A DNA stretch of 58,712 nucleotides from a virus (Duplodnaviria; Caudoviricetes). This document shows, in pieces, positions 2,197-55,120 of this stretch (positions within the stretch are counted from its first letter, which is position 1; each line of letters begins with the position of its first letter). The notes beneath the pieces were generated by a model. That model was given only the letters and a program-made list of their open reading frames with translations, was not told where the DNA came from and did no database searches. Where the stretch lies: positions 1-58,712 of the IMG/VR virus record IMGVR_UViG_3300046705_000051; one strand, 5' to 3'. Both the position numbers and the translations under genes were made by a program.

Positions 2197-2537
2197 CCCG
2201 CACGGAAGCGTGGTCGCAATCGGTGGCGGCGGGCATCCCCGATGACCTGTACTGGCGCAGCACTCCCGTAGAGACCGGGGCATTGCTGACCGCGCTGATC
2301 GAGCGCCAGTCCCGTCAGGAGCATGCTGCGGCGCTCCGGGCGGGACTTGTTGCAGCGGAGATCCGCAACACGATGCGCCAGAAGTCGTCCGACAAGGTGT
2401 GGCAGCCGCACCATTTCGTTCGCGAGAGGAGACCGGTGGATCAGCCACGGATCGTCAGTCGCGAGGAGTTCATCCAGCAAGCGGTCGCGTTCGCTACGGC
2501 GCATAACGCACGACTGCCACGCAGGGCGCGCGCATGA
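2166..2537 (+). CDS. Frameshifted extension of the tail chaperone (gpT-like part)
   Basis: GKSGARR...DLYWRSTPVE...; W-x-x-T-P-x-E motif; stop overlaps the tape measure ATG. Confidence 0.75.
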   Translation, partial: GKSGARRRCLTRTEAWSQSVAAGIPDDLYWRSTPVETGALLTALIERQSRQEHAAALRAGLVAAEIRNTMRQKSSDKVWQPHHFVRERRPVDQPRIVSREEFIQQAVAFATAHNARLPRRARA

Positions 2538-5272
2538 CCGTAGTCGGATCGGCGGTCCTCGAACTGCTGGGCGATTCCGCTCAATTCCGTCGCGAGATGG
2601 ACCGAGCCGCCAGTCGGTTCACCAAGATCGGCGGACAGATGGAGGCCGCAGGGCGCACACTGACGGCCGCGGTCACATTGCCGATTGTCGGGCTCGGCTT
2701 CGCTGTTGGCAAGGCGGCCATCTCGTTCGAGTCGAGTTTCGCCGGCATCCGCAAGACGATGGACCTGACAGAGGCCGAGTTCGGGAAGCTGGCGCAGGCG
2801 AACCGCGACCTTGCGAAAGCCATTCCCGTCAGCGTCAACGAACTGAACCGCATCGGTGAACTCGCCGGCCAGCTCGGTATCCGCGGTGTCGATAACGTCC
2901 TGAAGTTCGAGGACACGATCGCCAAGCTGGCGGTGACGACCGACCTGACCGCCGATGCCGCCGCGCTGTCGTTCGCGCAGATCGCCAACGTCATCGGGCT
3001 GCCACAGGACCAGATCGACCGGCTGGGCTCGGCCGTCGTTGGGCTGGGAAACAACTTCGCCACCGTCGAATCCAGGATCGTTGACTTCACCCAGCGCATC
3101 GCGGGCGCGGGCAAGATTGCGGGGCTGACGGTCGGCGACCTGACCGGCATCGCTACCGGCTTTGCGTCCATGGGCGTCAACGCGGAAGCGGGCGGCACGG
3201 CTGTACAGAAAGTGCTGCTGTCGATGGTGTCGGCCGTCGCACAAGGCGGCGAGGAACTGACGACGTTCGCGGACGTGGCGGGCACCACAGTGGGCGAGTT
3301 TGCCGACCTGTTCCGCCGCGATGCCGGTCAGGCGTTCGCGCGGTTCGTCGAAGGGTTGGGCCGTCAGGGTGACAACGCGATTGCCACGTTGGAAGCTCTG
3401 GGGCTACAGGACCAGCGTCTGATCCGCTCGTTCCTGTCGGCTGCATCGGCCGGCGATCTTCTGTCGCGTGCCATCGCGCAAGGCAATCGCGAGTTTGCCG
3501 ACAACAACGCACTGACTGAGGAGGCCGGGAAACGGTTCGAGACCGCGGCATCGCAACTGACGATATTCTGGAACCGCATCAAGGACGTGTCGATCACGCT
3601 CGGCAATGCGTTGGTCCCGGTCCTGCTGGACGTGGCTGACGCATTCACGCCACTGGTCGAAACTGTGGGCGCGGCCGCGAAGGCATTTGCCGGAATGGGT
3701 GTCGTGCGGGTCACGGCCGTGGCGCTCGCGGGCGTCGCCGCTGCCGTTGGCCCCGCGCTGATCGGGTTCGGGCTCCTGACCAAGGTCGTCGGCCTGACCT
3801 CTACCGCGTTCGGGGTGTTGGTCGGTCAGCAGCTCGTCCAGTTCACCGTCGCCACCGCCCGCGCTTTGCTCTCGGTCCATAGCCTGTCGGCCGCGTTTGC
3901 AATTCTCCGCAGCAGCGCCACGCTGTTTGGCGGCCTCATCTCGCCGGCTGGCGTTATAGTCGCTGGCATCACGGCTGTCATCGGTGTGTTCGCGCTCTGG
4001 CGTCGCGCGACGGCGGACCAGCGGGCCGAACAGGACCAGCTCAATACTACGCTCGACGCGACGAACGTCCTGCTGGACGAACAGCGCGTAGCCGGCATCC
4101 GTGCCATCGAGGCGCGCATCGCGGTGCTCACGACGGAGGCCGAAACGCTGCGTGCGCTCTCGGCGCGATACAAGGAAGGCTCGCGCATCAGCAAGGAGTT
4201 TGCCGAACAGGCGAGTGATGCAGAGCTGGCGATATTCCAGTTGCGCGGCCGGCTCGAGGAATTGCTACGTCCGGTCGAGGCACTGGCCGCGACGAAGCCG
4301 ATTAAGGTGTTGGAGGAAAACCCGGAGATCAAGGCGGCCATCGACGAACTGATCGCATCGTTGCAAACAGCCGCCGTGCTGTCGGACCTGCTGGGCGATT
4401 CGTTCAACCGATCGGAGGCTGAAGCGGATGCATACCGCTCGGCTGTCGAGGCGCTGGTCGAGGCCGGGCTGCAAGCTGCGGACGCGACCGGGTTCCAGAA
4501 CCTTACGCTCCAACAGTTGGCGGCCCGGTACAGCGAGATGCGGGGTCGCCTCGATGACGCAGCACGGACACAGCGCGAGCATACCGAGGCCATGCGTGAC
4601 GCGCAGCAGGCGCTGGCGCGGCAGGCGGCCGCCATCGACGCGATCGTCAACCCGCTGCGCCGACAGAACGAGCAAGTCGCGCTGGCCGTGCAGTTGTGGG
4701 CGCTCGGAATCATCAATCTGACTCGGCTGACGGAGGTCATGAGGGATGCCTACGGCGCGGCGGCCGAGTCAGTTGTGGCCGCGACTGAGCGTATCAGCGA
4801 TAGCCAGCGGCTTTTGTTCAGCGGCTTGGCGAACCTCGCCAGCAGCTTCGCCAGTTTTGCCGCCGATGGCCGCCAGTCGTTCAGCGAGTTTGCCGAGGCC
4901 GTGATCCGCGACATCGCCCGCATGATTGCGCAGTTCCTGGCACTCAAGGCCATCGCGGGGATCCTGACAGCCATCAATCCGGCACTGGGCGCGGGCTTCG
5001 CATCCTTCGCTGGCATCGGTGCGCGCGCCAGCGGCGGCCCAGTCGCGGCCAATCGCCCGTACCTGGTTGGCGAGCGTGGCCCCGAATTGTTCATGCCGCA
5101 GTCGGCGGGCAACATCGTGGCGAATGGCGGCGGGACCATCAGTCTGGACTTGTCAAAGATGCCGCCTGTGCCGACCGGTGGGTCGCCAGAACTCGCCGCA
5201 ACGCATGACTGGTACCGGCGCCTGTTCAGTCACCTGTACCTCGACTACGGCGATCGCGGAGGGTTGCGCTGA
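2534..5272 (+). CDS. Tail tape measure protein
   Basis: 912 aa, Ala-rich and helical; [11 protein letters not shown] and AEAGGTA motifs; C-terminal ASGGPV...[11 protein letters not shown]. Confidence 0.95.
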
Positions 5273-8554: not shown

Positions 8555-11493
8555 TGGCGTACATCGACGAAGTCCTCGCCGACAGCCCTTGGGCCTACTG
8601 GCCGTGCGACGATCCCAGCGGGTTGCCGCAGGACGCCTCAGGCAATGCGCGTCATGTGACGAACATCGGGTGGAGCACGCTGTCACCCGGTGGCCCGCCG
8701 ACATATGAGCAAACGGGAGTGCTGCCGTCATATCCGGGCATCAAGTCCATCAAGATGAACCGAAGCTGGTTCGACTTGCCGGCCCTGAACCTTCAGGACC
8801 TCGACTTTACGTTGGAATGTTGGCTGCGCGTGGACACGCTCGCCAGCAGCCTCGTGCTGTTCAGTCAGGGCGAGTTCGGTTTCACGGATTGGCTGATCTA
8901 TACGACACTGAACGCCGAGGCCGCCTCACCGGGTTCCACGCCCGGCGATGGCGGTGTGGGATTCGGGTATTGGAACGACGACCTTTGGACCGCTGCCGGG
9001 CTGGTGGCTGTTAACGATACCGTGCATTTCGTGTTCCGCCGAGACCACGCATCGGACGAATCGGCTGTCTATCTGAATGGCGTGCAGGTCGCGAGTGGGT
9101 CGCAGGGTGGTAAGGCGGTCCCGTCGACCGTGTTCGGGTTCGGCAGCCTGAGCAACATCGGCAACTTCCAGACAGTCGGCCATCTCGCGGTCTATCTCGA
9201 CGCGCTGTCCGATACACGGATCCTCGAACATTACGAGGCGGGCACGACGTTACCCGCAGAGCCGGTCCTGACCTGCGACACGAGCACACCCAGCTCGATC
9301 ACAGTCGGCATCACGCCAACGTTCGGCGCGTATGCGCACGAGATCTACGTCTCGCAGGATCCCGTGTTCGATCCGGACACGGACAGCCCACTGTTTTCCG
9401 ATGTGAGTCTCGGACCGGCACCGACCTCGTTCGAGATCACGGGTCTGGACGAGGCCGAGGACTACTACATCGTCGTGCGGTCGCTATCGAGTGGCAGCCC
9501 GGCGGTCCGCGACTCCGAGACGTTGCATTGCCAGACATCGGCCGGCGGCGCAGCTCCCGCGTTCGTGAGCGTCGTTTACATCAGCGCAACAGAGGTCGAG
9601 TTTCGGCCTGAGGTCGTTTCCGCTGCACTCGAAGTGTTCTACGAGTGGCGGCTTTCGGCCTCAGCGAGCGATTGGTCTGCCCTGATTGGTTCATCGAGCG
9701 ACACGAGCCCGAGTCGGTTTATCGGTGCCGGCACGGGAATCACGGCGGGCCAGTTGCACAAGGTTCGCGTCCGGTTCCGGTACGCGGGCGGGCTGTCCGC
9801 ATGGACCGAGACGGAGTGGCAACAGCCCAGCGCGACCGCCACATCCAGCGCAGCGATCGGTCAGTTCACGGCGCCCGGCGTGGGGTTTGTCGTCACGAGT
9901 CCCGTGGATCTCGAATGGACGCTCAATGCCGGGTGGACCGCGACCGCGCTGGAAGTCTCGCAGGACGGATCGTCCTACAGTGTGCTGACGACTACCGGGC
10001 TGGGGGCTGGGTCGTACACATTCGACCCGGCGGCGGGAAGTTACGACGAGGACGCGCTGCTGTTTTTCCGGATCGCGGCCACCGGCGGCGCGGGCACGGG
10101 CCATATCTACACTGCCGTCACGGTCGATACAGACGATAGCATCCCGGTCAAGTTCGGCCCGCATCAACCGTTCCCCATCTCGACCACGGAATGGGCTAGC
10201 GTCCAGATCATAGGGACCGGCCCGGTGTGGCTCGTGCCAGGCTCCGACCCGCACACAGGCGGCGGGATCGCGGGCAAGAACGGGACGAATGCGTACCTGG
10301 TATTTCCCAGCGTGCTCGCGCACGAAGGCGACGGGTTCGACGCTTTTGTGTCGGGTGCGGCGCTGGCATCCGGCAACGCACTGACCTGGTGGATGAACGA
10401 GGAAGTCAGTGGCTCGTTTTTCGGCCTGCGGTATGTCGATGAGAATGGCTCGGCGATCATCGAGCTATCGTTCACGTTTGACACGGTGATGCCGCTCTAC
10501 CCGACATGCCACCCGACGAACCTGCGGGGCAGTGGTAGCTGGATACTGGGCGTAAACGGCGCCGGGTCCGATGGCGGCGGAATCGCCTGTGCTGCCGGGA
10601 CGTGGTTCGGTCAACCGTGCCAGATCACGGGGATGCCGCACGCCCTCGCGCTGTCGGTGCGGCGGATCAGCGGGACCGACGATTACGACTACACGGTGCA
10701 GGTCATTGGCGACGGCTGCATTGATAGCGCGAGCGGGACACTTAGCATCCCGGGCGGGTTGCCGTGCGGCTATTGCGTGCCGTATCTCGGCCGCATCGAT
10801 TCGCAGTTCATCGGCTATCCACTGCTTACGGGTTTCTGGTGGTCGCCCGATGGCAGTCAGACGTGTTCGGCGGGCCAGCCGTCCGGGATCAGCCCTGCCA
10901 CCGCCCCGTCCGGGTGCGACGTAAACTGCCAGTGCGTCACGATCACACCGGACACGCTGGCGCTGCTTGGCGCAGATACGATCAGCTACGAGATCACGAC
11001 GGCCGATGACGAATACTTCGCCAGCCCGCTCTACGTGCGTGACTACGAGCCGGTCAACCCGATCCTGGCCGATGAGAAGTTCACGCAATGCGGCCTGCCG
11101 GCCGGCAACTACCTGGGGCGCTACATCGTCGAAACAGCCAGCGACGTGACCGAAAGCGAGCCGTGTGCGTTTTCCATCATCGAGCTGGGGATCAGCGTAT
11201 GGGCCGGCTGGCGCACGGCGGCCGACTTCGCCGGCTCCGACCCGGTCGCGGACTTCAGCTATGCCGTCGTGAGTGGTGCGCTCGTCCAGTTCACGGACGC
11301 CAGCTATGACATGGACGGCACGATCGAGGCGTGGCTGTGGCAGTTCAAGGACGAGAACGGAACGATCCTCGCGACCTCGACGGACCAGAACCCGTCCTAT
11401 GATTTCGGCTCGATTGCGACGTACCAGGTCACGTTGACGGTGCAGGATGACGATCTGCACACGGATAGCATCACCGAAACGGTGTCGCTGTGA
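8554..11493 (+). CDS. Tail-associated protein: N-terminal LamG/ConA-like domain, FN3-like repeats, C-terminal PKD domain
   Basis: VLADSPWAYW, FTLECW, VYLNG, LAVYLDALSDTRILEHY; PVADFSY...VQFTDASYDMDGTIEAWLWQF...YQVTLTVQDD. Confidence 0.8.
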   Translation: MAYIDEVLADSPWAYWPCDDPSGLPQDASGNARHVTNIGWSTLSPGGPPTYEQTGVLPSYPGIKSIKMNRSWFDLPALNLQDLDFTLECWLRVDTLASSLVLFSQGEFGFTDWLIYTTLNAEAASPGSTPGDGGVGFGYWNDDLWTAAGLVAVNDTVHFVFRRDHASDESAVYLNGVQVASGSQGGKAVPSTVFGFGSLSNIGNFQTVGHLAVYLDALSDTRILEHYEAGTTLPAEPVLTCDTSTPSSITVGITPTFGAYAHEIYVSQDPVFDPDTDSPLFSDVSLGPAPTSFEITGLDEAEDYYIVVRSLSSGSPAVRDSETLHCQTSAGGAAPAFVSVVYISATEVEFRPEVVSAALEVFYEWRLSASASDWSALIGSSSDTSPSRFIGAGTGITAGQLHKVRVRFRYAGGLSAWTETEWQQPSATATSSAAIGQFTAPGVGFVVTSPVDLEWTLNAGWTATALEVSQDGSSYSVLTTTGLGAGSYTFDPAAGSYDEDALLFFRIAATGGAGTGHIYTAVTVDTDDSIPVKFGPHQPFPISTTEWASVQIIGTGPVWLVPGSDPHTGGGIAGKNGTNAYLVFPSVLAHEGDGFDAFVSGAALASGNALTWWMNEEVSGSFFGLRYVDENGSAIIELSFTFDTVMPLYPTCHPTNLRGSGSWILGVNGAGSDGGGIACAAGTWFGQPCQITGMPHALALSVRRISGTDDYDYTVQVIGDGCIDSASGTLSIPGGLPCGYCVPYLGRIDSQFIGYPLLTGFWWSPDGSQTCSAGQPSGISPATAPSGCDVNCQCVTITPDTLALLGADTISYEITTADDEYFASPLYVRDYEPVNPILADEKFTQCGLPAGNYLGRYIVETASDVTESEPCAFSIIELGISVWAGWRTAADFAGSDPVADFSYAVVSGALVQFTDASYDMDGTIEAWLWQFKDENGTILATSTDQNPSYDFGSIATYQVTLTVQDDDLHTDSITETVSL

Positions 11494-18878: not shown

Positions 18879-20675
18879 ATGGCGGCACACAAGATCCGCG
18901 TGATACTCGACCCGCAGACGGGCGAAAACCCGTGGTCGTTCCTCGTTCGTCGCTCGCCTGACAAGCCGGTCGAATCGGTCAAGGTCACGTACATCGACGA
19001 AACCACAGGCATCCAGTACGGCCCGGTGATCGCCTGGCCGGTCGACGTAGAACCGACGCCAACACCGGAACCGGAACCAGAGCCTGAGCCAACGCCTGAG
19101 CCAGAGCCGGAGCCGGAGCCGGGCACGACCGCGCACACGATCAGCCTGGTGGCGCAGCCGCGCGTGGCTGGCGGCAATGACTACTCGATTGACGCTACGT
19201 TGCGCGACGATGCGGGCGCGGGCGTGGCCGGCGTTGTCGTCACACTGACGGTCACGGGTGGCACGTTCGGCCCCGGCACGACTGTCGAGACTCGCACGAC
19301 CGATGCGGCCGGGCTGGTGCGGATCAACTGGGAGGGCGCGGCGGACGGCGACAGCCTGACCGCATCGGCACCGGACGCCGAGCCGGTCGAGTACGTTCAC
19401 ACGACCACGGTGATCGTGCCGCCTGTCGTCGATCCACTACCGCCACCGCCACCGCCGAATGGCGCGGACCTGACGCCGGCGAATCTGCGGTTGCTACTCG
19501 GGCCGATGGTTGCACGTGGAACAAACCCGCCGGGCTGGCCGACGACGTTCGACAGTCGGCTGGATGTGGCCATTGCGCGAATGGTGAGCGAGGTCGCGGC
19601 CGGTGGTTTCTCCGAGGTCATCGACGGCGGCGATCAGGACAATGCGCACTATGGCCCGCTGCGGCTGGTGGCCATGCGGAACATCCGGGCCGGGCTACCG
19701 CTCGACGAAAGCGAGCCGGGATTTGCCGCCGCGATGACCGTGACTCGTGACACGATCCGCAAGTACGCGATCCCGAACCTGAGCACGTTCAGTCAGTACA
19801 ACCGATACAGCAACTGGGCGGACTGCGAGCTGGTCGTGCTGCTGTACCGCGGCGAGAGCAGCGACAACGGGAAACTGGCCGATGAGTGCTTGCGTCATCT
19901 GCACATCGCCGCCGTCTGGGGCTCGGGATTCATCACGGCCGCGACGAAGTCACTGGAACACCAGTGGATGGACACGCGGACGGCCGCCATGGTGATGGAT
20001 GTCGCGATGTGCTGCGACCGGCTGGGCATCGCGTATGGGACCGTGCCAGCGAATTACAGCCGCTCGCAGTGGAACAAGCCGGCCGGGGTATCGTCGTGGG
20101 GCGAGTGGGTGCTGTACCTGGGCCAGTGGATCGCGGACGTGCAGGCCGAGTCCGATCGCCGGTTCGCCGGACAGACGGACGCTGCGGGCAATGCGGTGCT
20201 GCCGGGCGGCACGCGATGGAAGGGCAACTCCGCAACGGCGCAGCAGACGACGCCGCCCGAGCCGTGGGCCTTGGCGCTGTTCAGCAGTGCCATGCTCGCG
20301 GACGCACTGTTGCGCGCGGATCGCGAGTACGGCTGCGTGCAGTGCCGTCAGGTAGCGATCGCGCTGGCGCCCGTGGTGCAGCAGCAGTACGACCCGCAGC
20401 GTCAGGCGCTGCCGTACCTGACCGCGCCAGCTCCGGCCGGGGGACGCTTCACCGGCACGAATCAGGATTACGACCTGAACAACTTCTGGGTCGGCCCGCT
20501 GCTCATCATGCACGGCCTGACCGGCGAGGCGTGGATGCGCGACATCGCCATCGGGCTGATGGCAAACTCGCGACTCGGTGCGTGGGAATGGCGGTTCAAG
20601 CAGGCGCAGCAGTTGGGCTCCGCTACGTTCCCGCAGACGGGCGAGGCGATTCTTGCAGGACTGAGCTGGCGCTGA
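18879..20675 (+). CDS. Multidomain protein: Pro-Glu linker, Ig-like (Big_1-like) domain, poly-Pro, helical C-terminal domain
   Basis: PTPTPEPEPEP linker; ATLRDDAGAGVAGVVVTLTV...TTDAAGLVRI; PPPPPP; Trp/Tyr-rich helical C-terminus. Confidence 0.6.
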   Translation: MAAHKIRVILDPQTGENPWSFLVRRSPDKPVESVKVTYIDETTGIQYGPVIAWPVDVEPTPTPEPEPEPEPTPEPEPEPEPGTTAHTISLVAQPRVAGGNDYSIDATLRDDAGAGVAGVVVTLTVTGGTFGPGTTVETRTTDAAGLVRINWEGAADGDSLTASAPDAEPVEYVHTTTVIVPPVVDPLPPPPPPNGADLTPANLRLLLGPMVARGTNPPGWPTTFDSRLDVAIARMVSEVAAGGFSEVIDGGDQDNAHYGPLRLVAMRNIRAGLPLDESEPGFAAAMTVTRDTIRKYAIPNLSTFSQYNRYSNWADCELVVLLYRGESSDNGKLADECLRHLHIAAVWGSGFITAATKSLEHQWMDTRTAAMVMDVAMCCDRLGIAYGTVPANYSRSQWNKPAGVSSWGEWVLYLGQWIADVQAESDRRFAGQTDAAGNAVLPGGTRWKGNSATAQQTTPPEPWALALFSSAMLADALLRADREYGCVQCRQVAIALAPVVQQQYDPQRQALPYLTAPAPAGGRFTGTNQDYDLNNFWVGPLLIMHGLTGEAWMRDIAIGLMANSRLGAWEWRFKQAQQLGSATFPQTGEAILAGLSWR

Positions 20676-20744
20676 CTGACGGGCGCGGTGATACTTCGCT
20701 CACAGATGAATGATACCCACACCTTATCGTAAGGGGCGAGAGCC

Positions 20745-21026
20745 ATGAGCATGAGCGAGGACGTCGCACGGTACATCAAGGCCGGACTGGCCGCGGAGCA
20801 TCACACATGGGACCGCGCAGAGTTCATCGACCACATGGGTGCACTGCTGACGAAGCTGCGCGCCGACAAGGACGCGGTCCCGGCCGTCCGGTTCGGTCTG
20901 AGCGAGGACTGGACGCTCGTGGTCTGGCACTTCCTGCTGCGCAACGACGTGGGGACGCGCAGCCATGAGGATTGCGAGCCGGATGAGTGCTTCAATATCA
21001 GCCACCCGTGCCCGCCGTTCTGCTGA
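20745..21026 (+). CDS. Small protein ending in HPCPPFC (putative signal/precursor)
   Basis: AGGGG RBS; C-terminal FNISHPCPPFC; TGATG-coupled to the membrane gene. Confidence 0.65.
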   Translation: MSMSEDVARYIKAGLAAEHHTWDRAEFIDHMGALLTKLRADKDAVPAVRFGLSEDWTLVVWHFLLRNDVGTRSHEDCEPDECFNISHPCPPFC

Positions 21027-21709
21027 TGGAAGTGTGGGCGCAGGAAGTATCGCACTTCGCCGGGCTCTTGCCGCTGGCGGCTGTCGCGTGGCTGTCGCTC
21101 CGACGCCCGGTCGAGCCAACGGCGGTCATTCTGGGCGCGGTGTTCGCAATGTCCTTCGCCCTCGACATGACGGGCGCGGCCTTGGGCGATGCGGGCGTCC
21201 CGAACCTGTGGCTGACCTACATCCTCGCGCCCGTGCAATTCGGCCTGCTGCTGGCCGTCGTGATGCCGGTCCGCTACCGCCGCATCGTGTGGGGCTTCTT
21301 CGGCCTGCTGGTCGCCGCGTCGTTCGCTCGCGCGACGTTCGACGCACCGGAAACGTTCGTGCATGTGCTCGGCGGCGCATTCGTCGCCTTGGCCGCATGG
21401 ACGCAGCCGGCCTTCGAGCGCTACCGGACGGGCGTCATGCTGTACTGTGTGGCCACGATACCGGGCCTGCTGGCGATGGGATTCTTCACCCCGGGTTGGA
21501 CAGTCGAATGGCTGGCCGCGTGGGGACTCTATCAGGTAGTGCGAGTGTCGGCGCTCGTGTGCGTTGCGTGGTCGATCCTCGCGTTTCCCCGGACGCGTTT
21601 GGAGGTTATCCGTGACCGACCACGAACTGTTGCTGCTGGCGAAAGAGGTCTTGCCGCCAGCCACGTTCATGTTGCTCCTCGGCGCGGTCATCGTCCGGCA
21701 ATTTATTAG
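21026..21709 (+). CDS. Multi-pass (about 6-7 TM) membrane protein
   Basis: Successive hydrophobic segments; NLWLTYILAPVQFGLL. Confidence 0.75.
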   Translation: MEVWAQEVSHFAGLLPLAAVAWLSLRRPVEPTAVILGAVFAMSFALDMTGAALGDAGVPNLWLTYILAPVQFGLLLAVVMPVRYRRIVWGFFGLLVAASFARATFDAPETFVHVLGGAFVALAAWTQPAFERYRTGVMLYCVATIPGLLAMGFFTPGWTVEWLAAWGLYQVVRVSALVCVAWSILAFPRTRLEVIRDRPRTVAAGERGLAASHVHVAPRRGHRPAIY

Positions 21710-21926
21710 CTGGCGGCGCGAGTCGCCTCCGGTCGCACGTCCGACGCTGGTACCGCCGACGCTCATGCCGCCGACGCGGGATGATCCGTGCGACGGACTG
21801 CGTCAGGAGATCGTCGCGTTGCGCGGGTTCATTGCCGGTTTGCACGACGGCACGCGGGCGCACATCGAGAAGGAAGTGCAGGACGCGCGCAACCTGATTC
21901 TGGGGCAGCGTCGCAAGGAGGCGTAA
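21612..21926 (+). CDS. Single-TM protein with an LHD motif
   Basis: GGAGG at 21601 then GTG; TM ATFMLLLGAVIV; LRGFIAGLHDG. Confidence 0.65.
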   Translation: MTDHELLLLAKEVLPPATFMLLLGAVIVRQFISWRRESPPVARPTLVPPTLMPPTRDDPCDGLRQEIVALRGFIAGLHDGTRAHIEKEVQDARNLILGQRRKEA

Positions 21927-22276
21927 TGGATGCGGAAGTCATTATTGCAGTCGGCTTGCTGATATCTGCCATCGGCGCTCAGTACGTGGCGTTAAAGAGG
22001 GAGCTGCGGCTGGACCGCGAAGCGCGTCTGGCGGCCGCGGGTGCGGCTGCGAAGGCGGTAGAGGAAGCACTCGTCAAGGCCGCGGCCGAAGCAGATGCGA
22101 AGCTGACGGCCGTCGCCGCCAACGTGCAGAAGGTCGAGCTTGCGACGAACAGCATGAAAGATGCGCTGGTCGAAGCGACAAGGGAGGCCGCGCTGGCGAA
22201 GGGCAAAGAGAATGAGCAGGCGGCACAGGCGGCGCGGGAGGCGGCGGCGAAAACCCCATCGGAGGAATCGAAATGA
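21926..22276 (+). CDS. Single-TM coiled-coil protein (holin/antiholin-like)
   Basis: N-terminal TM followed by an Ala-rich coil; lysis-region position. Confidence 0.5.
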   Translation: MDAEVIIAVGLLISAIGAQYVALKRELRLDREARLAAAGAAAKAVEEALVKAAAEADAKLTAVAANVQKVELATNSMKDALVEATREAALAKGKENEQAAQAAREAAAKTPSEESK

Positions 22277-22491
22277 CAACGATCATGCTGGCGACACTCG
22301 TGCAGGAACTCGGCTCGACGCAGGGTCTGATCCTGCTGATAATCTGGATCCTGCTCATCGGCTGCGTACTCTGGGCCGTCCGGTGGGCACTCAGTCAGTC
22401 GGGGCTGCCGGCGCCTGTGCAGACCGTCACGCTCGTGGTGATCGCGCTGGTGATCCTGCTGGTCGTGTTGACGCGGTTCGGGGTCGTGTGA
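22273..22491 (+). CDS. Two-TM holin-like protein
   Basis: 72 aa with two strong TM helices around LPAP; GGAGG RBS. Confidence 0.55.
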   Translation: MTTIMLATLVQELGSTQGLILLIIWILLIGCVLWAVRWALSQSGLPAPVQTVTLVVIALVILLVVLTRFGVV

Positions 22492-23363
22492 CCGAGGTCG
22501 ATCTTGTGGTGCAGGGCGGGGGCAGCACGGGCCTGTTCCAGGCGCACCTGTGGGCCGAGCTGGAAGCCCGCGGCTACAAGATCCGCAAGGCCATCGGCAC
22601 GAGCGTCGGCGCCATCATGGTGAGTGCGCTACGGGTGATGAGCGCCGAGCAGTACATCGAGATGTTCGAGGGCATCCGGACGCGCGACGTCATGAAGAAG
22701 CCCGCGAAGTGGCTGGAATGGACCGCGTACGCCGGGCTGCGAAACCACACGGGGCTCTACGACTGGACGCCGCTGGAGAAACTGCTGCACCGGCACCTGC
22801 CGTGGTCCGAGCAACCGCAAACGTGGGTGACGCGGGTCAATGCAGCGACGCGACAGGTTGACTCGCCGCTGGCGTGCGCAAAGACCGTGTTCGAGTCAGC
22901 GCTGATGCCGATCATCGGACGGTCTGCAACGTGGTACGATGGCGGTCCGCGTGAACAGGTTCCGCTGTCGCAGGGCCTCCAGCATGGCGTGGGCAGCGAT
23001 GGCACGAAGGTGGTCATCCTGCTGACCTCGCCGTTCCGTGAAGTGCCGGCGCAGGATCCGCAGCCGCGCAATGGGCTGGATGCCATCATGTCCGTGCTCG
23101 ACGCGACGTTGCGCGAGGGCAAGGTAAACGACCTGACCCCGTACCTGCTGCTGAACTGGCTGGCCAGTCAGCTCGGACCGCTGCCCCGGCCGGGAGAGCC
23201 ACCCTACGGCGGCGGGCGGTACGTCTACTACCCGACCGAGATCTGGGCGCCGCTGCGTGATCTGGGGCCGGCAATGGACTTCGACAGCGAGCAGTGGAAG
23301 GAAGTACGGCGGCAGGAAGCGGCGGCATCGATCGAGCGTGGGCCGCTGGTGGACGCATGGTAA
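22488..23363 (+). CDS. Patatin-like phospholipase
   Basis: LVVQGGGSTG oxyanion loop, GTSVG nucleophile, YDGG catalytic Asp; GTGA overlap. Confidence 0.85.
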   Translation: MTEVDLVVQGGGSTGLFQAHLWAELEARGYKIRKAIGTSVGAIMVSALRVMSAEQYIEMFEGIRTRDVMKKPAKWLEWTAYAGLRNHTGLYDWTPLEKLLHRHLPWSEQPQTWVTRVNAATRQVDSPLACAKTVFESALMPIIGRSATWYDGGPREQVPLSQGLQHGVGSDGTKVVILLTSPFREVPAQDPQPRNGLDAIMSVLDATLREGKVNDLTPYLLLNWLASQLGPLPRPGEPPYGGGRYVYYPTEIWAPLRDLGPAMDFDSEQWKEVRRQEAAASIERGPLVDAW

Positions 23364-23373
23364 GCGAGGGCGC

Positions 23374-23886
23374 ATGATCTACGACCGCGACTTCTGGCAC
23401 GCGCAGCACGGGCAGGGCCACCGGATGACCGGGCCGGACCCGGTTGCGCTGGTCATCATGCACCATGCCGCGGCGCCGGACATCCCATGCGGCGTGGGCC
23501 GGGATCGCGAGCGGGCCGTGCTGCGCTCGATCGAGCAACACCATGTGCGGGTCAATGGCTGGGCCGGCATCGGATACAGCTTCCTCGCGTTCCAATCCGG
23601 CAACGTCTACGAGGGCCGCGGATGGCAACGGGTCGGCGCGCACACCCGCGGGCGCAATTCGACCGCCTACGGGATCTGCATCGTGATCGACGGGACCGGG
23701 ACCGCGCCGTCCGTGGCGGCAATCGAGGGCTGCCGCGACATTATCACCGAGGGCATCCGGCTGGGTCACATCGGTGCGGACTACCGCATCGGCTGGCACG
23801 CGCTGTACGCACAGACTGCGTGTCCAGGCGCGCGTGTGATCGAGCGGCTGGGCAAGCTCGGGCCACTGGTAGAGCCCGCGGCGTAA
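23374..23886 (+). CDS. Endolysin, N-acetylmuramoyl-L-alanine amidase (Amidase_2/PGRP-like)
   Basis: VIMHHAA, GWAGIGYSF, YEGRGW, GAHT, H...TACPG. Confidence 0.92.
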   Translation: MIYDRDFWHAQHGQGHRMTGPDPVALVIMHHAAAPDIPCGVGRDRERAVLRSIEQHHVRVNGWAGIGYSFLAFQSGNVYEGRGWQRVGAHTRGRNSTAYGICIVIDGTGTAPSVAAIEGCRDIITEGIRLGHIGADYRIGWHALYAQTACPGARVIERLGKLGPLVEPAA

Positions 23887-23890
23887 GCGT

Positions 23891-24070
23891 GTGCAGGTCG
23901 GCGACGAATACATCGACTCCCGCGACCCGCGCCATCGGCGGTGGACGCTCGTGATTGCCGCGGCACGTTTCGGCGGCGTGGCGGTTGTCTGCCTGTCGTG
24001 CGCGGATCGCCGGCTGTGGGTGCCGCTGGCGGTGTTTCGCGAGTACTACGTGCCGGTGGTGACGCCGTGA
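23891..24070 (+). CDS. Small hypothetical protein (59 aa, not in ORF track)
   Basis: GTG...MQVGDEYIDSRDPRHRRWTLV...FREYYVPVVTP*; fills the gap after the endolysin. Confidence 0.45.
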   Translation: MQVGDEYIDSRDPRHRRWTLVIAAARFGGVAVVCLSCADRRLWVPLAVFREYYVPVVTP

Positions 24071-34823: not shown

Positions 34824-36098
34824 ATGGGGCGGCGCCGAAAGGACGAATCCCGGTCCGGCCGCTGGTCGATCCAGGTCGGCGAGTACGGCGCGACCGTGCG
34901 GGTCCGTGAGCGCGAGCGTGGCGGCCGGGTGCAGCTCTGCTACTTCGACGTGGGGCTCGGTCGGCGGCGCTACCCCTACGCGGAATCGGTCCAGACGGTC
35001 CGGGACCGGCACGGCCGGGTTGACGCGCGGGCGGTCGAGGTCGTGACGCGCGAGGCGATGGAGCTGAATACGCGGCTGCTGGCCGAACGGCTGGAGGGTA
35101 GCCTGTCCGCGCAACGGCTCACGCTCGCGCAGGGATTCGCCCTGTTCCACGATCCGGACCGCGGGGCCATGCCGGTGAGCGTGAGCGCCCGTCGCCACCA
35201 CACGAACGCCAGACGCTACTGGATGCTGAACGTGCCGGGCGAGCGGCCGTGGAACCAGATCCTGCCGAGCGAGGTCGAGACCGCGACGCTCAAGCTGGCC
35301 CGGACCGGCAAGATCCCGACGGCTGAGAAGTACGTGCGCTGCTTTCGGACCGTGCACCGGTGGCTCCGCGACAAGGCGGGCTACGACACGTTGCGCGACC
35401 CGACGCGCGGGCTGGATCTGCGGCGGGTGCGCGAGGGCCATGAGGTCCGGCGTCCCGTCTACCGGCCGGCCGAGATTGAGGCGCTGATTGCCGTGGCGGC
35501 CGGCGTGGATCGGCGCTTCGAGTTCGCGCTGATCTGGGCCGCGGATTCAGGGGCACGCTCGGCGGCGCTCTACCGGGCGGTACGCAGCCAGGTTGACGAG
35601 CCGCTGGACGTCGCGCCGACGATAGAGCAGGCGCCGTACGGCCATGCGAATCTGGCGGCTCTCAAGGGTCAAGGCCGCGCGCTCACGTTCCTGACACATC
35701 GCCAGCGGGTCGTGTTCGATGCCGCGGTTGCGTCGTATCTGCGGGCGCTGGAGCAACGGTGGCTGGCCGAGCAACGCGACTACCCGCTGATCCCCGGTGG
35801 CCGGTTCCCTGATGGCGGCGTGTTCGGCACGGAGCTGGTGTCGCCCGTCTCGAACAAGATGATGGAGAAGTGGCTGCGGGCCGCCGAGAAGGCCGCCGAT
35901 GTGCCGCATGTGAAGCGCCGGGGCTGGCATGGGATACGCCGCGGCTGGGCCGAGTACACGCTCGACGAAACCGACATCGAGACCGTCCGGGACGCGGGCG
36001 CATGGGCGGACCGTGACGTACCGGACGCGATCTATCTCAAGCGCGAGCACTTCGGTCGGCTGGCCAAGTCGCGGCAGGCGCAGGAGGGGAAGCTGTGA
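34824..36098 (+). CDS. int: Tyrosine recombinase/integrase
   Basis: DSGAR (catalytic R), GWHGIRR (HxxR), GAW, IYL (catalytic Y); basic N-terminal arm-binding-like region. Confidence 0.8.
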   Translation: MGRRRKDESRSGRWSIQVGEYGATVRVRERERGGRVQLCYFDVGLGRRRYPYAESVQTVRDRHGRVDARAVEVVTREAMELNTRLLAERLEGSLSAQRLTLAQGFALFHDPDRGAMPVSVSARRHHTNARRYWMLNVPGERPWNQILPSEVETATLKLARTGKIPTAEKYVRCFRTVHRWLRDKAGYDTLRDPTRGLDLRRVREGHEVRRPVYRPAEIEALIAVAAGVDRRFEFALIWAADSGARSAALYRAVRSQVDEPLDVAPTIEQAPYGHANLAALKGQGRALTFLTHRQRVVFDAAVASYLRALEQRWLAEQRDYPLIPGGRFPDGGVFGTELVSPVSNKMMEKWLRAAEKAADVPHVKRRGWHGIRRGWAEYTLDETDIETVRDAGAWADRDVPDAIYLKREHFGRLAKSRQAQEGKL

Positions 36099-37228
36099 GC
36101 AGCGCCCGCATCCTGCAAGGCGATTGTCGCTGGTACATGCAACGGTTCGGCTGTCATGTGGATGCCATCGTCACCGATCCGCCGTATGAGCTTGGCTTCA
36201 TGGGCAAGGCGTGGGACCGGGCGGGCGTAGCGTTCGACCCGCGCACGTGGAAACTGGCGCTGCAAGTGCTGAAGCCGGGCGGCCGGTTGCTGGCGTTCGG
36301 GGCGCCGCGCACGCATCACCGGATCTGGTGCGCCATCGAGGACGCGGGCTTCGTGATTGAGGATACCGTGTCGTGGCTATTCGGGTCGGGGTTTCCGAAG
36401 CACAAGAGCAAGCTGAAGCCGTTCGCGGAGTTCATCTGCGTTGCTCGCAAGGGTCCGGTTACGGCGCTGAACATCGATGCTGGGAGGATACCGACAAGCG
36501 ACGTGCTGTCTGTCCCGCAGAGCGACCCGCACAGACGGGGACTCGGAGCGGGCGAATACTGCATCTCCACTCGCGATACCGCGAAGATGCACCAAGCGCA
36601 ACAGGCCAGCATCGAACGCACAATGCTCGCCGGCCGGTGGCCTCCGAACGTGGCGATGGACGAGAGCGCTGCCGAAATGCTGGACGCTCAGACGGGGACG
36701 CTGACAAGCGGGACGGGGTCCGTCAAGCGAGCGTCCGCCGCTGAACGCAATGGCAATCGTGGCGCGGCCTACGGTAGAGAGAGTCGGCCGGAGGGCACGC
36801 CTATGATCGAATACGGTGACTCAGGCGGCGCGTCCCGCTTCCTGTACGTCGCGAAGGCGTCACGGGCTGAACGGGAGCGGGGGCTAGCGGGGATGCCGCT
36901 CCATGACGCCGGGAAGTTCGAGGACGACGCCTACGAGTGGGCGACCGATGGGCGTGGGAATCCGCGTGCAGGGCGGACTCGTCTCCGCAACCCGCACCCG
37001 ACCGTGAAGCCCGTAGCCCTCATGCGGTGGCTCGTGAAGCTGGTCACGCAGCCGGGCGACCTCGTGCTGGACCCGTTCGCGGGCAGCGGCACCACGGGCA
37101 TGGCCTGCGTTCTGGAAGGCCGCGAGTTCATCGGGATCGAGCGGGAACCGGAATACGCGGCCATCGCGGAACGCAGGATCGCGAATGCTCTGGGGCCGTT
37201 GTTCGCTGACACGGACGGTGCCGCGTGA
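36095..37228 (+). CDS. DNA methyltransferase (N6/N4, beta class)
   Basis: TDPPY, HPTVKP, VLDPFAGSGTTG. Confidence 0.92.
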   Translation: MSSARILQGDCRWYMQRFGCHVDAIVTDPPYELGFMGKAWDRAGVAFDPRTWKLALQVLKPGGRLLAFGAPRTHHRIWCAIEDAGFVIEDTVSWLFGSGFPKHKSKLKPFAEFICVARKGPVTALNIDAGRIPTSDVLSVPQSDPHRRGLGAGEYCISTRDTAKMHQAQQASIERTMLAGRWPPNVAMDESAAEMLDAQTGTLTSGTGSVKRASAAERNGNRGAAYGRESRPEGTPMIEYGDSGGASRFLYVAKASRAERERGLAGMPLHDAGKFEDDAYEWATDGRGNPRAGRTRLRNPHPTVKPVALMRWLVKLVTQPGDLVLDPFAGSGTTGMACVLEGREFIGIEREPEYAAIAERRIANALGPLFADTDGAA

Positions 37229-46832: not shown

Positions 46833-47596
46833 CCAGCATCGCGGCGCTCGTCTACGCCAGCGTCCGCCACGCTCGCCACCTGTGGGACAATCTGCGCGCA
46901 ACGTGTCCGGAGCTGGCGACCGGCGAGGCCGAGTTCCAGATCATCGCCAATGACGCGACCGACGAAGTGCTTGCGTTCCTGGAGGCCGAGAGCATTCCGC
47001 ATGTTGTCCAGACCAACCCGCGCCTGAGCCGCCCGGAACTGGAGAAGCTGGGCATCGGCAAGCCGGAATACATCCGACGCGTCTATCAGGGCTGGAACCG
47101 GGCCATCACGGAAGCGCGACACGACTGCCTCGTCCTGTTGAGCAGCGACCACGTCATGTCGCCCGGCTGGTTGGGCGTGCTGCGCAGCAAGTGGCACTCC
47201 GGCATCGCGCTGAGTGCGCTGACGGTCGAGCCTGGCGGCGTACACGGCGTGTTCCCTGCCCGGCTCGGCGGCGGCACTGGCGCGGTCCGTGGCGCTTACG
47301 GCCACACGCTGGCGACGTTCGATGCGCGTGGCTTCGCGGCCCATGCTATTGCTCTAAGGGCCGACCGCCTGACGCCGGGCGGTGCTCACCAGCCGGTTAT
47401 GGTCAGCCGCCGAGCCGTGATCGATGCCGGCCTGTACCCCGAGGGCAACCTGCACGCCGGCACGTTTGACCGCATCAAGGAATATGGCGACCGCCGACTG
47501 TTTCGGCTGCTGCGTGAACGCGGGATCCTGCACCACACCTACCACGGCACGGTGGCGTACCACTTCGGCGAGGGCGAAATGAGGGAGGCAGCGTGA
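46829..47596 (+). CDS. GT2-like glycosyltransferase
   Basis: IIANDATD, GWNRAI, VLLSSDHVMSPGWL, YGD, YHFGEG. Confidence 0.75.
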   Translation: MTSIAALVYASVRHARHLWDNLRATCPELATGEAEFQIIANDATDEVLAFLEAESIPHVVQTNPRLSRPELEKLGIGKPEYIRRVYQGWNRAITEARHDCLVLLSSDHVMSPGWLGVLRSKWHSGIALSALTVEPGGVHGVFPARLGGGTGAVRGAYGHTLATFDARGFAAHAIALRADRLTPGGAHQPVMVSRRAVIDAGLYPEGNLHAGTFDRIKEYGDRRLFRLLRERGILHHTYHGTVAYHFGEGEMREAA

Positions 47597-48642
47597 GCGA
47601 CATCTATTCGCAGCTCAAGCCGGCGTGGCACCCGGACCGACTGGCGGACCTGAAAATGGGCATCCGCCCCAAGCCGATTCACGTGCAGTTGATCCTGTCG
47701 GACCTGTGCAACCACGATTGCTCGTTCTGCGCGTATCGCATGTCGGCCGGCCTGTCCAACGAGCTATTCGCCGATGAGGCGGGCCGGGCCAACCCTCACC
47801 GCATGATACCCGCTGAGAAGGCAATCGAGATCGTGGACGACTGCGCTGAGATGGGCGTCGTGGCGCTCCAGTTCACGGGCGGCGGTGAGCCGACTGTACA
47901 CCCGCAGCATCGCGACATTTTCGTCCACGCCCAGAACCTTGGCATCGAAACCGCGCTCGTCACAAACGGCATCAAGATGCAGCCGAAGCACGAGGCGTTT
48001 CAGCGTATGACGTGGGTTCGGGTGAGTGTCGACGCTGGCGACCCGCTGACGTACAGCAAGGTCCGTCGCGTGCCGGTCGGCCATTGGATGAAGGTGTGGG
48101 CGAACATAGCGGCGCTGGCGGAGACGTACACGGGCACGCTGGGCGTCGGATTCGTGGTCACGCCGGAGAACTACAAAGGCATCGCGGTTGCGGCGCAGAT
48201 GGCGAAGGACGCGGGCGCCAAGAACATGCGGGTCGGTGCCGTGTTCAGCACGGCCGGCACGTCGTTCTACGGCGACCTGATCCCGGAGATATGCGGCGTG
48301 ATCGATAACGCCAAGTCGCGGATTGAGGGCAACGGCTTCGAGCTGGTGGATTTGTTCGGCCGCCGTCTGGGCGACCTCGAACACGGCCGGCCCACGGACC
48401 CGGACTGTCACTACCAATACCTGACGGTCTACATTGGTGGCGACCTGTTCGTCTACCGCTGCTGCAACACGGCGTACACGGAGGCGGGCAAGGTCGGCAG
48501 CCTCAAGGACCAGCGATTCAAGGACGCGATGCTTGCCTACGAGCCGTTCGACGCACGCGGTTGCCGCTTCTGTCAGTTTTTGGGGCAGAATCACGCGATC
48601 AAGGCGCTGTTGCACGAACCGACACACGTCAACTTCGTATGA
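47593..48642 (+). CDS. Radical SAM enzyme with SPASM/Twitch domain
   Basis: CNHDCSFC, FTGGGEP, TNG, RVSVDA; C-terminal C...YRCC...CRFC. Confidence 0.92.
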   Translation: MSDIYSQLKPAWHPDRLADLKMGIRPKPIHVQLILSDLCNHDCSFCAYRMSAGLSNELFADEAGRANPHRMIPAEKAIEIVDDCAEMGVVALQFTGGGEPTVHPQHRDIFVHAQNLGIETALVTNGIKMQPKHEAFQRMTWVRVSVDAGDPLTYSKVRRVPVGHWMKVWANIAALAETYTGTLGVGFVVTPENYKGIAVAAQMAKDAGAKNMRVGAVFSTAGTSFYGDLIPEICGVIDNAKSRIEGNGFELVDLFGRRLGDLEHGRPTDPDCHYQYLTVYIGGDLFVYRCCNTAYTEAGKVGSLKDQRFKDAMLAYEPFDARGCRFCQFLGQNHAIKALLHEPTHVNFV

Positions 48643-49678: not shown

Positions 49679-50336
49679 GCACGTTTGTGCGAGTGGACGT
49701 AGTGCCCGGAGAATTGCTGGCGGCGAATACGGAACTGGCCGCCGAGAAGGTTGATGGCGTCTGGCACGTTCGGGCGGCGGGTGAGGGCGATTTCGTCATC
49801 GGCCGAACGCCAACGGAAGCGGAGGCCGCGAACTTGCCCGCCCCGGATGTCGGCAGGGTGCTGATGATTCCGACACGGGAATGGGCTCGTGTTGCTGGCT
49901 GGATCGGGGGCGGGGCGGCATGACGGTGGTCACGGAGAGCCACGGACGGAAGTCCGTTGCGTGGATCGACCGGTACGGCAAAGAGTGGATGGCCTCTGTC
50001 TACAGCAGGGAGGAGATCCGGGCAGGGTGGAGGGAGGTAGACAGATTGGCGAATGCCGCCCGCGTGAATGTAAACCATGTGAGATTGCAGCCGGGCGCAA
50101 CCGGCGTGTATGCTGCAGCGGTCCATGATGAGGAAACCGCTCTCCGACTGACGGCGTTATATCGGCGTTACGTGTGCAACAATCCTCATGGCTGCCGTTG
50201 GACGGGTCGGCTGTGGCTGGCCGATGCCAACACTTCGCACACGTCACGGGGTCGGGTGCACAGAATCGTCGTTGACGTCCTCGGCCCGACAGCGCCATAC
50301 GATGGCGAGCCACCATTGTTTGCGGAGGAGCTGTGA
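49675..50336 (+). other. Two hypothetical ORFs (49675-49923, 49920-50336)
   Basis: ATGA/GTGA coupling. Confidence 0.5.
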
Positions 50337-53919: not shown

Positions 53920-54917
53920 CCGCCCTCGCCGTCCAGCAGCTACCGCCGAAGTCCGGCCGACCACGCTCGCGGTTCTACACGATTGCGCAACGGATCGCGT
54001 CCAGGTTCGAGCCGGCCGTGGCTGCGGCGTTCCTGCGGTCGATTGAGCGGCTGATTGCGCACATTGACGAGGCCGACCTGCTGTCTGCGATTGCGTCCGG
54101 CAACCTCAACCTAATCGCGGGCGCTGCTGGCGCCGGCCGGTTGGAAGGCTTCATTGGCACGGACGAAACATTACGCCGTGCGTTGGCCAACACGGCGGCA
54201 GCGACCGGGCGCGCGAGTGCCGAGATCCTGAGCGATGCGAGCGGGCTGGCGTTTCGCTTCAACGCCTTTGATCCGAACGTGGTCATGTTTGCTCGCACGC
54301 AGACGGCGGAACTTGTGGTCGCGGTCGGTGAGGACGTGCGCGAGGCGATACGCATTGTCGTGGCACTCGGCAACGAGGTCGGGCTGACGGTCGAACAGCA
54401 GGCGCGTGCCATCCGTGAAGTCGTCGGGCTGCCGCCGAACTGGGCCAATGCGCCGCTCAACCTGCGTCGTGAACTGGAAGTCGGCCGGTTCACCCACACC
54501 CGCCGACTGTCCGCCGTCGAGAAGGCGCAGATTCGCAAGCGCATCCGGGAAGGCACGATAGACGAGGCGTTCATTTCGCGTATGGAGCGCCGGTATGCCG
54601 AGAGCTTGCGCAACCGACGCGCGTTGAACATCGCGAGGACCGAGACACTGCGGGCGAGCCACCACGGCCAGCGGGTATCGTGGCGACAGGCCACCCGCGA
54701 GGGCGTATTGCCGGCGACAGCGCGCAGGATGTTCATCGTGACGCCAGACGACAGATTGCGCGAAACCCATGCGGCGGTACCGGGCATGAACCCGGACGGC
54801 GTCGGGCTGGACGAGCCGTTCCGCACGCCGCTCGGCCCGTTCCTCGACCCGCCGATCGAGCCGAATTGCAGGTGCGGCGTCGGGCTCGTGTTTCCGGGTC
54901 TGGCTGGTGTGCTATGA
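53916..54917 (+). CDS. Head morphogenesis protein (Mu gpF / SPP1 gp7 family)
   Basis: RALNIARTET, DDRLRETH, PPIEPNCRC. Confidence 0.9.
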   Translation: MTALAVQQLPPKSGRPRSRFYTIAQRIASRFEPAVAAAFLRSIERLIAHIDEADLLSAIASGNLNLIAGAAGAGRLEGFIGTDETLRRALANTAAATGRASAEILSDASGLAFRFNAFDPNVVMFARTQTAELVVAVGEDVREAIRIVVALGNEVGLTVEQQARAIREVVGLPPNWANAPLNLRRELEVGRFTHTRRLSAVEKAQIRKRIREGTIDEAFISRMERRYAESLRNRRALNIARTETLRASHHGQRVSWRQATREGVLPATARRMFIVTPDDRLRETHAAVPGMNPDGVGLDEPFRTPLGPFLDPPIEPNCRCGVGLVFPGLAGVL

Positions 54918-55120
54918 CACAGCTTTCGCCACGCCAGACCGAGGTCGCCGCGCTCATCGCGGAAGGGTTGAGCGACAAGGCGATTGCGCGCGAACTCGAT
55001 CTATCCTACGGTACGATCCGCCAGTATGTCGTCCGCATTGCAAGGCGCCTGCCGGGCAGTGGTCCGCCAAGGTGGCGCATCATGAGCTGGTACATTCGGC
55101 ACCACAAGTCAGCCGCGTAG
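54914..55120 (+). CDS. Stand-alone LuxR-type HTH protein
   Basis: LSPRQTEVAALIAEGLSDKAIARELDLSYGTIRQY. Confidence 0.88.
   Translation: MTQLSPRQTEVAALIAEGLSDKAIARELDLSYGTIRQYVVRIARRLPGSGPPRWRIMSWYIRHHKSAA

Follow-up and report, generated by a model that had tools for sequence, protein, structure and literature searches.

A phage lysis cassette headed by a seven-helix membrane protein and its Cys-motif partner, relatives of a gene pair linked to two-component systems in Gemmatimonadota

The genome of a soil phage, IMG/VR virus record IMGVR_UViG_3300046705_000051 (Duplodnaviria; Caudoviricetes), was analysed over its full length of 58,712 bp, hereafter the window. Three small genes, A, B and C, head its lysis cassette and are chained to the lysis genes that follow. 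A encodes a protein with a P-C-P-P-(x)-C motif near its end and B a seven-helix membrane protein; both are homologous to a gene pair that in Gemmatimonadota precedes a HisKA_3 kinase and a NarL/LuxR-type response regulator, hence a two-component system (TCS). In the phage the kinase and the regulator are absent, and a single-pass coiled-coil protein, C, stands in the place of the kinase. We regard it as plausible, at just short of an even chance, that A-B-C is a sensory input module which the phage captured and whose output, redirected through C, gates the triggering of the holin and thus the lysis time.

The A-B-C block and the lysis genes

Genes A to G form one translationally chained unit of seven genes (Table 1). 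The stop codon of A and the start codon of B have one base in common (TGATG), and C starts with GTG at 21612 within B, 6 nt past a GGAGG, with a B/C overlap of 98 nt. The stop of C and the start of D overlap in TAATG, D and E in ATGA and E and F in GTGA, and G starts 10 nt after F. Read in the frame of B, the GGAGG of C yields the conserved 'LEV' of the B tail, a signature found at the same tail place in 20 of 52 B-family members. A first-pass annotation, made by a model from the letters of the window, had listed three coupled genes after a gap, the terminal HPCPPFC, the transmembrane (TM) content and an LHD string, all of them correctly, and had likewise seen that holin-like genes, a phospholipase and the endolysin follow directly (D and E, the Patatin protein F and the Amidase_2 protein G).

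Location in the lysis cassette and TM content of C, D and E would fit small holin-type membrane proteins. None of the proteins A to E matched a described holin family in Pfam or PHROGs at E<=0.1; D gave only a weak match to PHROG 3005 (E 0.058), and E had no family match in Pfam or PHROGs. The patatin-like lipase F, with the motifs GGGSTG and GTSVG visible in its translation, is placed between the two-TM holin-like gene E and the amidase gene G. A lipoprotein (o-spanin-like) open reading frame (ORF) was not seen in 21926-22491, and the lipase F might take the outer-membrane step of lysis. Neither a sigma-70-like promoter nor a terminator was found in the 69-nt gap before A or bracketing A-C. 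The two GTGATA copies of this gap may be a promoter or operator element; they are conserved by alignment between the window (20676-20744) and a related contig, L002 (7635-7713), and were not seen in the loci L004 and L005 described below.

Four further loci with the block were recovered: the 29-kb metagenome contig L002, whose B is 84% identical to that of the window, the 1.2-kb fragment L003, in which ...SHPCPPFCD and a stop are directly followed by the start of B, and two IMG/VR records of 55.9 kb (L004) and 45.9 kb (L005, B ~40% identical). Counts of full loci refer to the window, L002, L004 and L005 (n=4), L003 being partial. Directly upstream of B lies a PCPPxC ORF in 5/5 phage or metagenome loci, the partial one included. 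The order A, B, single-TM coiled-coil gene, lysis genes was observed in all four full loci, and so were the junctions: TGATG between A and B, GGAGG before C, a B/C overlap of 98 nt and a stop of C that overlaps the next start. The start codon of C is ATG at the same position in the three related loci, versus GTG in the window. The overlap (window 21612-21709; L002 8587-8684; L004 8599-8696; L005 8575-8672) is fixed although the identity of B is only 40-47% in the distant loci, and the stop of B always falls at the end of the TM segment of C in these four loci. As the module recurs in contigs independent of one another, with the same junctions and unchanging motifs, it is more than a chance arrangement. 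Megablast of positions 20000-24000 against phage and plasmid collections and tblastn with A and B as queries in 50,697 phage records returned nothing. Scans of IMG/VR with B and with the A and C families retrieved the window's own record only, subgroup alignments added just L004 and L005, and three more scans gave nothing new; the pattern scans used smaller subgroup alignments.

The lysis genes themselves differ among the loci. The window has the Amidase_2 protein and the patatin, L002 and L004 have a 151-aa M15-type-peptidase-like gene, and L005 has two-TM proteins and an Amidase_2-like amidase, the labels for L002, L004 and L005 being read by eye from the translations. The upstream neighbour is a tail fibre gene in three loci and a terminase gene in L005. 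Since the upstream neighbour varies and lysis genes always adjoin, the block travels with the lysis genes and not with the structural genes. This bears on the proposal that A-B-C serves a membrane function apart from lysis, such as superinfection exclusion or envelope modification, and is parked between structural and lysis genes. Moron accessory genes commonly sit at this junction, the 69-nt gap precedes A, and one bacterial A-B pair (L006, see below) stands beside a pectate-lyase-like protein with neither kinase nor lysis genes. Yet no promoter or terminator brackets the block, the stop of C overlaps the start of the first lysis-cassette gene in 4/4 loci, and the block of L005 follows a terminase and still stays joined to lysis genes. 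We consider a function apart from lysis highly unlikely.

Two protein families and their bacterial operon

A and B represent, by all profile searches, two newly recognised protein families with no match in Pfam, NCBIfam or the PDB sequences; PHROG gave no match either. For B, both its profile and the long B of a Gemmatimonadota genome (L024, see below) served as PDB queries. A of the window ends in ...NISHPCPPFC and has no hydrophobic segment and no signal peptide in its sequence. As a single query it retrieved 4 clusters, as a profile 15 protein clusters, all metagenomic, and these 15 clusters share a single invariant feature, the P-C-P-P-(x)-C close to the C-terminus. In the family, the other two cysteines of the window protein are not conserved. 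The alignment of A comprised 32 phage and bacterial homologues. The AlphaFold2 model shows a small alpha/beta domain (pLDDT 79.9) for which fold searches gave no match (best values: E 0.66 in Foldseek, Z 4.6 in VIA). According to the model, A is a folded cytoplasmic protein and not a secreted peptide, and the peptide sensing put forward in the first-pass annotation has thus lost its ground. The Cys-Pro-Pro-x-Cys of A is possibly a thiol or metal switch.

B, which contains NLWLTYILAPVQF, belongs to a family for which phmmer found 62 representatives in 1.84 billion proteins (E<=1e-3). Twenty representatives that were looked up came from metagenome sources only, some of them on contigs the size of a phage genome (up to 58,743 bp). 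Based on 52 homologues, AlphaFold2 modelled B as a compact seven-helix bundle followed by a disordered Arg-rich tail, 187-227 (pLDDT 86.4). The positive-inside rule suggests that the protein is probably oriented N-out/C-in. Conserved polar residues are buried in the bundle: S43, D47, Q71, E109, Y140, Y169 and R173. A prediction of the complex of B(1-200) with A returned 'no answer' with a score of 0.00, which weighs neither for nor against binding.

The structural neighbours ranked highest for B were all seven-helix bundles of the type of G-protein-coupled receptors (GPCR) and rhodopsins (VIA Z 12.9-8.7). The best one was a designed GPCR-like fold with Z 12.9 and a root-mean-square deviation (rmsd) of 4.0 Å over 188 residues, in a setting where the helical-bundle background reaches ~13; Foldseek found nothing at E<=0.001 (best E 0.17). 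B has in common with GPCR and microbial rhodopsins the seven-helix up-down bundle, superposing with an rmsd of ~4-5 Å over ~185 residues, and the probable N-out/C-in orientation. It differs from them in sequence, with 5-13% identity, and the Z scores stay within the helical-bundle background. A retinal-binding Lys is absent from helix 7 (160-186), where R173 is the conserved charged residue. In P0016, a metagenome protein from a 1,168-nt contig, a B homologue breaks off in helix 7 and a DivIC/FtsB-like coiled coil follows (Pfam DivIC E 3.5e-12); either the assembly is chimeric or the seven-TM domain is naturally fused to a single-pass coiled-coil protein.

A compact bundle in which conserved polar residues are buried is more in keeping with a sensor or transducer than with a hole-former. 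The simplest alternative is plain lysis hardware: B, C or both would be a holin, an antiholin or another membrane disruptor, no sensing would take place, and the likeness to a sensor would reflect ancestry only. The block does head the lysis cassette in 4/4 phage loci, holin families vary widely and frequently lack annotation, and L002 and L004 show no two-TM holin-like ORF between C and the endolysin, which leaves the single-TM proteins or B as candidates. Known holins have 1-4 TM segments, and a tightly packed bundle of seven helices in 227 aa with buried polar residues is unlike them; a conserved soluble A with an invariant PCPPxC has no place in simple hole-forming, and no match to a holin family was obtained in PHROGs or Pfam. 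We judge this alternative unlikely.

The first bacterial homologue of B was met in a metagenome-assembled genome (MAG) of Gemmatimonadota, in a pattern scan with one genome per species. The bacterial search covered Gemmatimonadota; genes of the loci were called by ORF criteria and G+C content at third codon positions, with approximate starts. With the B profile, 15 of 401 Gemmatimonadota genomes gave matches, at 17 places in all; these numbers are a floor, as a stricter first look was used. At all 17 places the small ORF directly upstream of B ends in [PQ]CP[PI]xC: 15 have the exact PCPPxC, one QCPPFC and one PCPIYC, and one ORF with the exact motif has lost its own stop. Enough sequence downstream was available at 14 places, 10 of which have a single-TM kinase as the next gene. 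These kinases consist of a short N-terminus and one TM helix ahead of HisKA_3 (9/10) and HATPase_c (9/10) domains, one of them being cut by a contig end. The gene after the kinase encodes Response_reg plus GerE in 9/9 tested cases. The four evaluable places lacking the kinase are L006, the disrupted L031 and the two tandem A-B pairs of L024. Only ~10 residues of the kinases lie outside the membrane, thus they need an accessory sensor. Neither A nor B of the bacteria matched Pfam or NCBIfam. Look-alikes in the Atlas labelled Bacteroidota or Gemmatimonadota scored 0.88-0.90 and count as weak leads only. A search of the literature at the level of listings found nothing relevant on the A-B system, the PCPPxC motif, a Gemmatimonadota phage endolysin or phage-encoded kinases and lysis timing.

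The first-pass annotation had described, for bacterial genomes and notably Bacteroidota, a small PCPPxC protein whose neighbours are a similar membrane protein, a HisKA_3 kinase with one TM segment and a regulator of LuxR type. Such a system exists in Gemmatimonadota with the above frequencies (A 17/17, kinase 10/14, regulator 9/9), and the expected co-occurrence of A and B homologues with kinase neighbours is borne out. As the bacterial four-gene system is real, the proposed co-option of one part of it by the phage has a factual basis. The co-opted module postulated in that annotation thus stands as far as bacterial A-B and the lysis adjacency in 4/4 phage loci are concerned; its peptide-sensing part found no support. 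Phage and bacterial loci are alike in the homology of A and B (profile matches), the gene order, the PCPP(x)C motif and a single-TM gene at or inside the 3' end of B. They are unlike in that the HisKA_3 kinase and the regulator with receiver (REC) and GerE domains are absent after A-B in all 4 phage loci, where C and the lysis genes follow instead. Bacterial A further differs from phage A by one more conserved Cys (PGC) and by a ...S.LNG tail that follows the motif.

B behaves like a sensory input domain that can couple to different outputs. The two tandem A-B pairs of one Gemmatimonadota MAG (L024, 532-3517, minus strand) have B proteins of 374-376 aa that end in a probable AraC-type helix-turn-helix (HTH; HTH_18 E 1.8e-4 and 4.8e-3, below the Pfam cut-off); B with this HTH tail would be a membrane-tethered one-component regulator. 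At L006 (3848-11482) the protein beside the A-B pair is a pectate-lyase-like one of 530 aa, and the surroundings hold thiol-redox genes (Redoxin/TlpA-like, BrxC bacilliredoxin, AhpC/TSA) and a MarR regulator. The setting of this single locus hints at a redox relation of the CPPxC motif. Downstream of the A-B-kinase-regulator operon of L026 (9691-13100) are seven tandem small single-TM proteins with a C-terminal ERLDFxERLL; the array was checked as a possible regulon and occurs in L026 only among the loci. L031 has two extra orphan PCPPxC ORFs (3145-3471 and 9107-9520) a few kb from its main pair, whose A has lost its N-terminus and stop; the transposase label of a neighbouring ORF is a guess from position.

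Gene C and a possible control of lysis time

C has one hydrophobic segment, followed by ...LRGFIAGLHDGTRAHIEKE. Its family comprises 4 clusters, and C itself matched neither Pfam nor PHROGs nor NCBIfam. C resembles the N-termini of the bacterial kinases in architecture, namely a short N-terminus, one TM segment, basic residues and then a helix; it shares their slot, starting inside or at the 3' end of B, and its string IAGLHDG in the window resembles their H-box IARELHDD. The first-pass annotation had seen in C a kinase cut down to TM segment and H-box. Tests of homology gave this view no support. Five C-family proteins gave no match to HisKA_3 (PF07730) at E<=10, a search in which the HMMER filters can drop very weak matches, in contrast to the kinases beside bacterial B, which match HisKA_3 in 9/10 at E 1e-10 to 3e-5. 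HATPase_c had no match in C either, and the protein ends 26 residues past the LHD string. An hhalign comparison of C with the kinases gave a probability of 1.3%, and a hidden Markov model of the kinase N-terminus placed no C homologue in the top 25 of 775 scored ORFs (of 1027). Smith-Waterman alignments of C with the kinases reached p 0.01-0.06 against shuffles and were not co-linear except for L005. Conservation of the LHD had been set beforehand as the refuting test: His78 is kept in 4/6 aligned homologues, the window clade, and gives way to E in L004 (FEDG) and to S in L005 (LSQ), the only distant homologues in the alignment. C is best described as a positional analogue of the kinase, with descent from a kinase as a possibility, and these alignments exclude phosphotransfer as its conserved function.

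The fuller model of the first-pass annotation, with A as signal peptide precursor, B as receptor and C as truncated kinase relaying through its His to a LuxR-type protein encoded at 54914, is hardly credible on this evidence. It draws on the existence of the bacterial four-gene system, on the LHD of the window clade (4/6 C homologues) and on the GerE protein encoded in the window. The latter is real: 54914-55120 encodes a stand-alone 68-aa GerE/LuxR HTH without receiver (Pfam GerE E 1.4e-10, residues 3-46). Its gene sits between a Mu-F-like head gene and a DUF2213 (scaffold or protease-like) gene, where one would not expect a regulator. The connection of this protein to the module did not hold up. 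GerE was not found in the 2 other searchable A-B-C phage records (85% and 54% complete), and the phage HTH had the operon regulator as best match in only 1/5 operon-carrying genomes, at identities of 30-44% as for any LuxR-type protein and thus with no specific kinship; no link is apparent between the HTH and A-B-C. Moreover, A lacks a signal peptide and is predicted to be folded, the loss of the His in 2/6 homologues, the only distant ones, largely refutes a relay, C has neither a HisKA_3 match nor an ATPase domain for phosphorylation, and a receiver-less HTH offers no phospho-acceptor.

A decoy of host signalling is another way to read a kinase slot without kinase. A-B-C would mimic the host sensor complex and titrate or poison the cognate HisKA_3 kinase or regulator, blunting a late envelope or redox stress response. 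The homology of A and B to a host-type TCS input pair would suit this, as would a C in the kinase slot that lacks a catalytic domain like a dominant-negative, and the window clade retains IAGLHDG, similar to the H-box of the kinases. Against precise mimicry speaks the divergence of TM5-7 in phage B. C has no detectable similarity to kinases (hhalign 1.3%; not in the top 25 of 775 ORFs), a decoy would not require the constant physical and translational coupling to lysis genes, and no cognate host system can be named. We hold a decoy to be rather improbable.

The capture of a sensory module for lysis control, which we favour, would work as follows. A, B and C would form one membrane-associated complex, made together with the lysis proteins; that the three bind one another is suggested by their strict adjacency and coupling. 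A-B would be the phage version of the two-gene sensory input pair that feeds the HisKA_3 kinase and the NarL/LuxR regulator in Gemmatimonadota, with B as seven-helix membrane sensor and A as its cytoplasmic partner. B would sense a membrane, envelope or redox cue, as the buried polar residues, the Cys pair of A and the sensor-less bacterial kinases suggest. The slot of the kinase would be filled by C with its single membrane pass and cytoplasmic coiled coil. As C lacks an ATPase domain and a conserved His, the output cannot be phosphotransfer. It would rather be a protein-protein contact in which C, perhaps together with the basic tail of B, acts on holin-type proteins encoded by the next coupled genes, which are the presumable target of C. 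The time of membrane permeabilisation would then be set by the membrane, envelope or redox state read by A-B. The most specific form of this proposal, a receptor-gated lysis clock in which the captured sensory half of a TCS is wired via a kinase-less adaptor straight onto the holin, is tentative, and we view it with some doubt.

Several observations weigh against a captured sensory module. C has no detectable homology to kinases, and only its position and architecture suggest that it replaces the kinase. The similarity of phage B to the TCS-linked B lies mainly in TM1-TM4 (profile positions ~7-120, E 1e-10 to 6e-4), and most signature residues of the phage family in TM5-7 are not shared with bacterial B, so that the function of phage B may have diverged. 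The LEV (GGAGG) tail signature is kept by no more than the 20 B-family members mentioned above. The four phage loci amount to about three independent lineages, as A and B of the window share 84-87% identity with those of L002. The gene after C in L004 encodes a soluble 79-aa protein and not a membrane protein, and the linkage to lysis was seen in 4 full loci of a B family with 62 representatives.

Known systems offer partial parallels. LiaF-LiaS-LiaR and BceAB-BceRS are three-component envelope-stress systems in which an accessory membrane sensor serves an intramembrane-sensing HisKA_3 kinase. The bacterial relatives of A-B resemble them in a sensor-less kinase that relies on a membrane protein encoded next to it and in the NarL/LuxR-type regulator. 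B differs from LiaF and BceB: no relation in sequence or fold was seen, B is a seven-TM protein with a soluble Cys-motif partner, and the phage lacks kinase and regulator. In the lysis inhibition of phage T4 the antiholins RI, a small periplasmic sensor, and RIII act on the holin T. As proposed for A-B-C, accessory membrane proteins of a phage shift the triggering of the holin upon a cue; the proteins are entirely different, and T4 has no seven-TM protein and no Cys-motif partner. LytSR is a TCS controlling the holin-like cid/lrg genes, similar to A-B-C in that a multi-TM membrane sensor of a TCS is functionally tied to holin- or antiholin-like proteins. Unlike A-B-C, LytS is a complete bacterial kinase with a five-TM Lyt domain that acts on transcription, and it has no sequence relation to A, B or C.

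In very few systems is it known how phages set and adjust the lysis time other than by the clock of the holin itself, and a sensor module fused to the lysis genes would be a new mechanism. If the proposal is true, B would be the first seven-TM receptor-type sensor known to control phage lysis, and the finding would also expose a new class of bacterial HisKA_3 signalling systems coupled to a seven-TM protein. The bacterial cassette of PCPPxC protein, seven-TM sensor, sensor-less HisKA_3 kinase and NarL regulator is newly uncovered, and with A and B two new protein families can now be studied in a clear operon context. As a natural 'kinase-deleted' variant, the phage version could help to dissect the cue of A-B and its dialogue with a single-pass partner.

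Genome setting

The window has a G+C content of 65%, an estimated completeness of 88% and a siphovirus-like gene layout (Table 1). The host of the phage is placed provisionally, and solely by where A-B homologues occur; the major capsid protein had a single weak match (27% identity) in the 401 Gemmatimonadota genomes.

Table 1. Genes of the A-B-C and lysis block and other features of the window
Feature	Position	Strand	Size	Description
Gene A	20745..21026	+	93 aa	ATG start, TGA stop; predicted cytoplasmic alpha/beta protein, C-terminal P-C-P-P-(x)-C
Gene B	21026..21709	+	227 aa	Predicted seven-helix membrane protein, disordered Arg-rich C-terminal tail
Gene C	21612..21926	+	104 aa	Single TM, Pro-rich linker, coiled coil with LHDG
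Gene D	21926..22276	+	116 aa	N-terminal TM and Ala/Glu/Lys-rich coiled coil; holin, antiholin or spanin-like candidate
Gene E	22273..22491	+	72 aa	Two TM; class-II-holin-like candidate
Gene F	22488..23363	+	291 aa	Patatin-like phospholipase; Pfam Patatin E 5.4e-11
Gene G	23374..23886	+	170 aa	N-acetylmuramoyl-L-alanine amidase endolysin; Pfam Amidase_2 E 6.4e-12; PHROG 1493 endolysin E 4e-23
Gap	20676..20744	+	69 nt	Between tail-fibre-like gene and A; two GTGATA copies and AAGGGG ribosome site of A
Tape measure protein	2534-5272			
Tail genes	ends 20675			Last one a 598-aa tail-fibre-like gene
A-B-C and lysis block				After the tail genes; leftward genes follow
Terminase	43761			
Portal	51817			
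Mu-F-like protein	53757			
Major capsid protein	56691			

Three further genes of the window encode a radical SAM protein (47593-48642, Pfam E 5.4e-18), an N6/N4 DNA methylase (36095-37228, E 1.1e-35) and a 506-aa protein with a SAM-methyltransferase domain (50333-51853). These three proteins may have a role in DNA modification.

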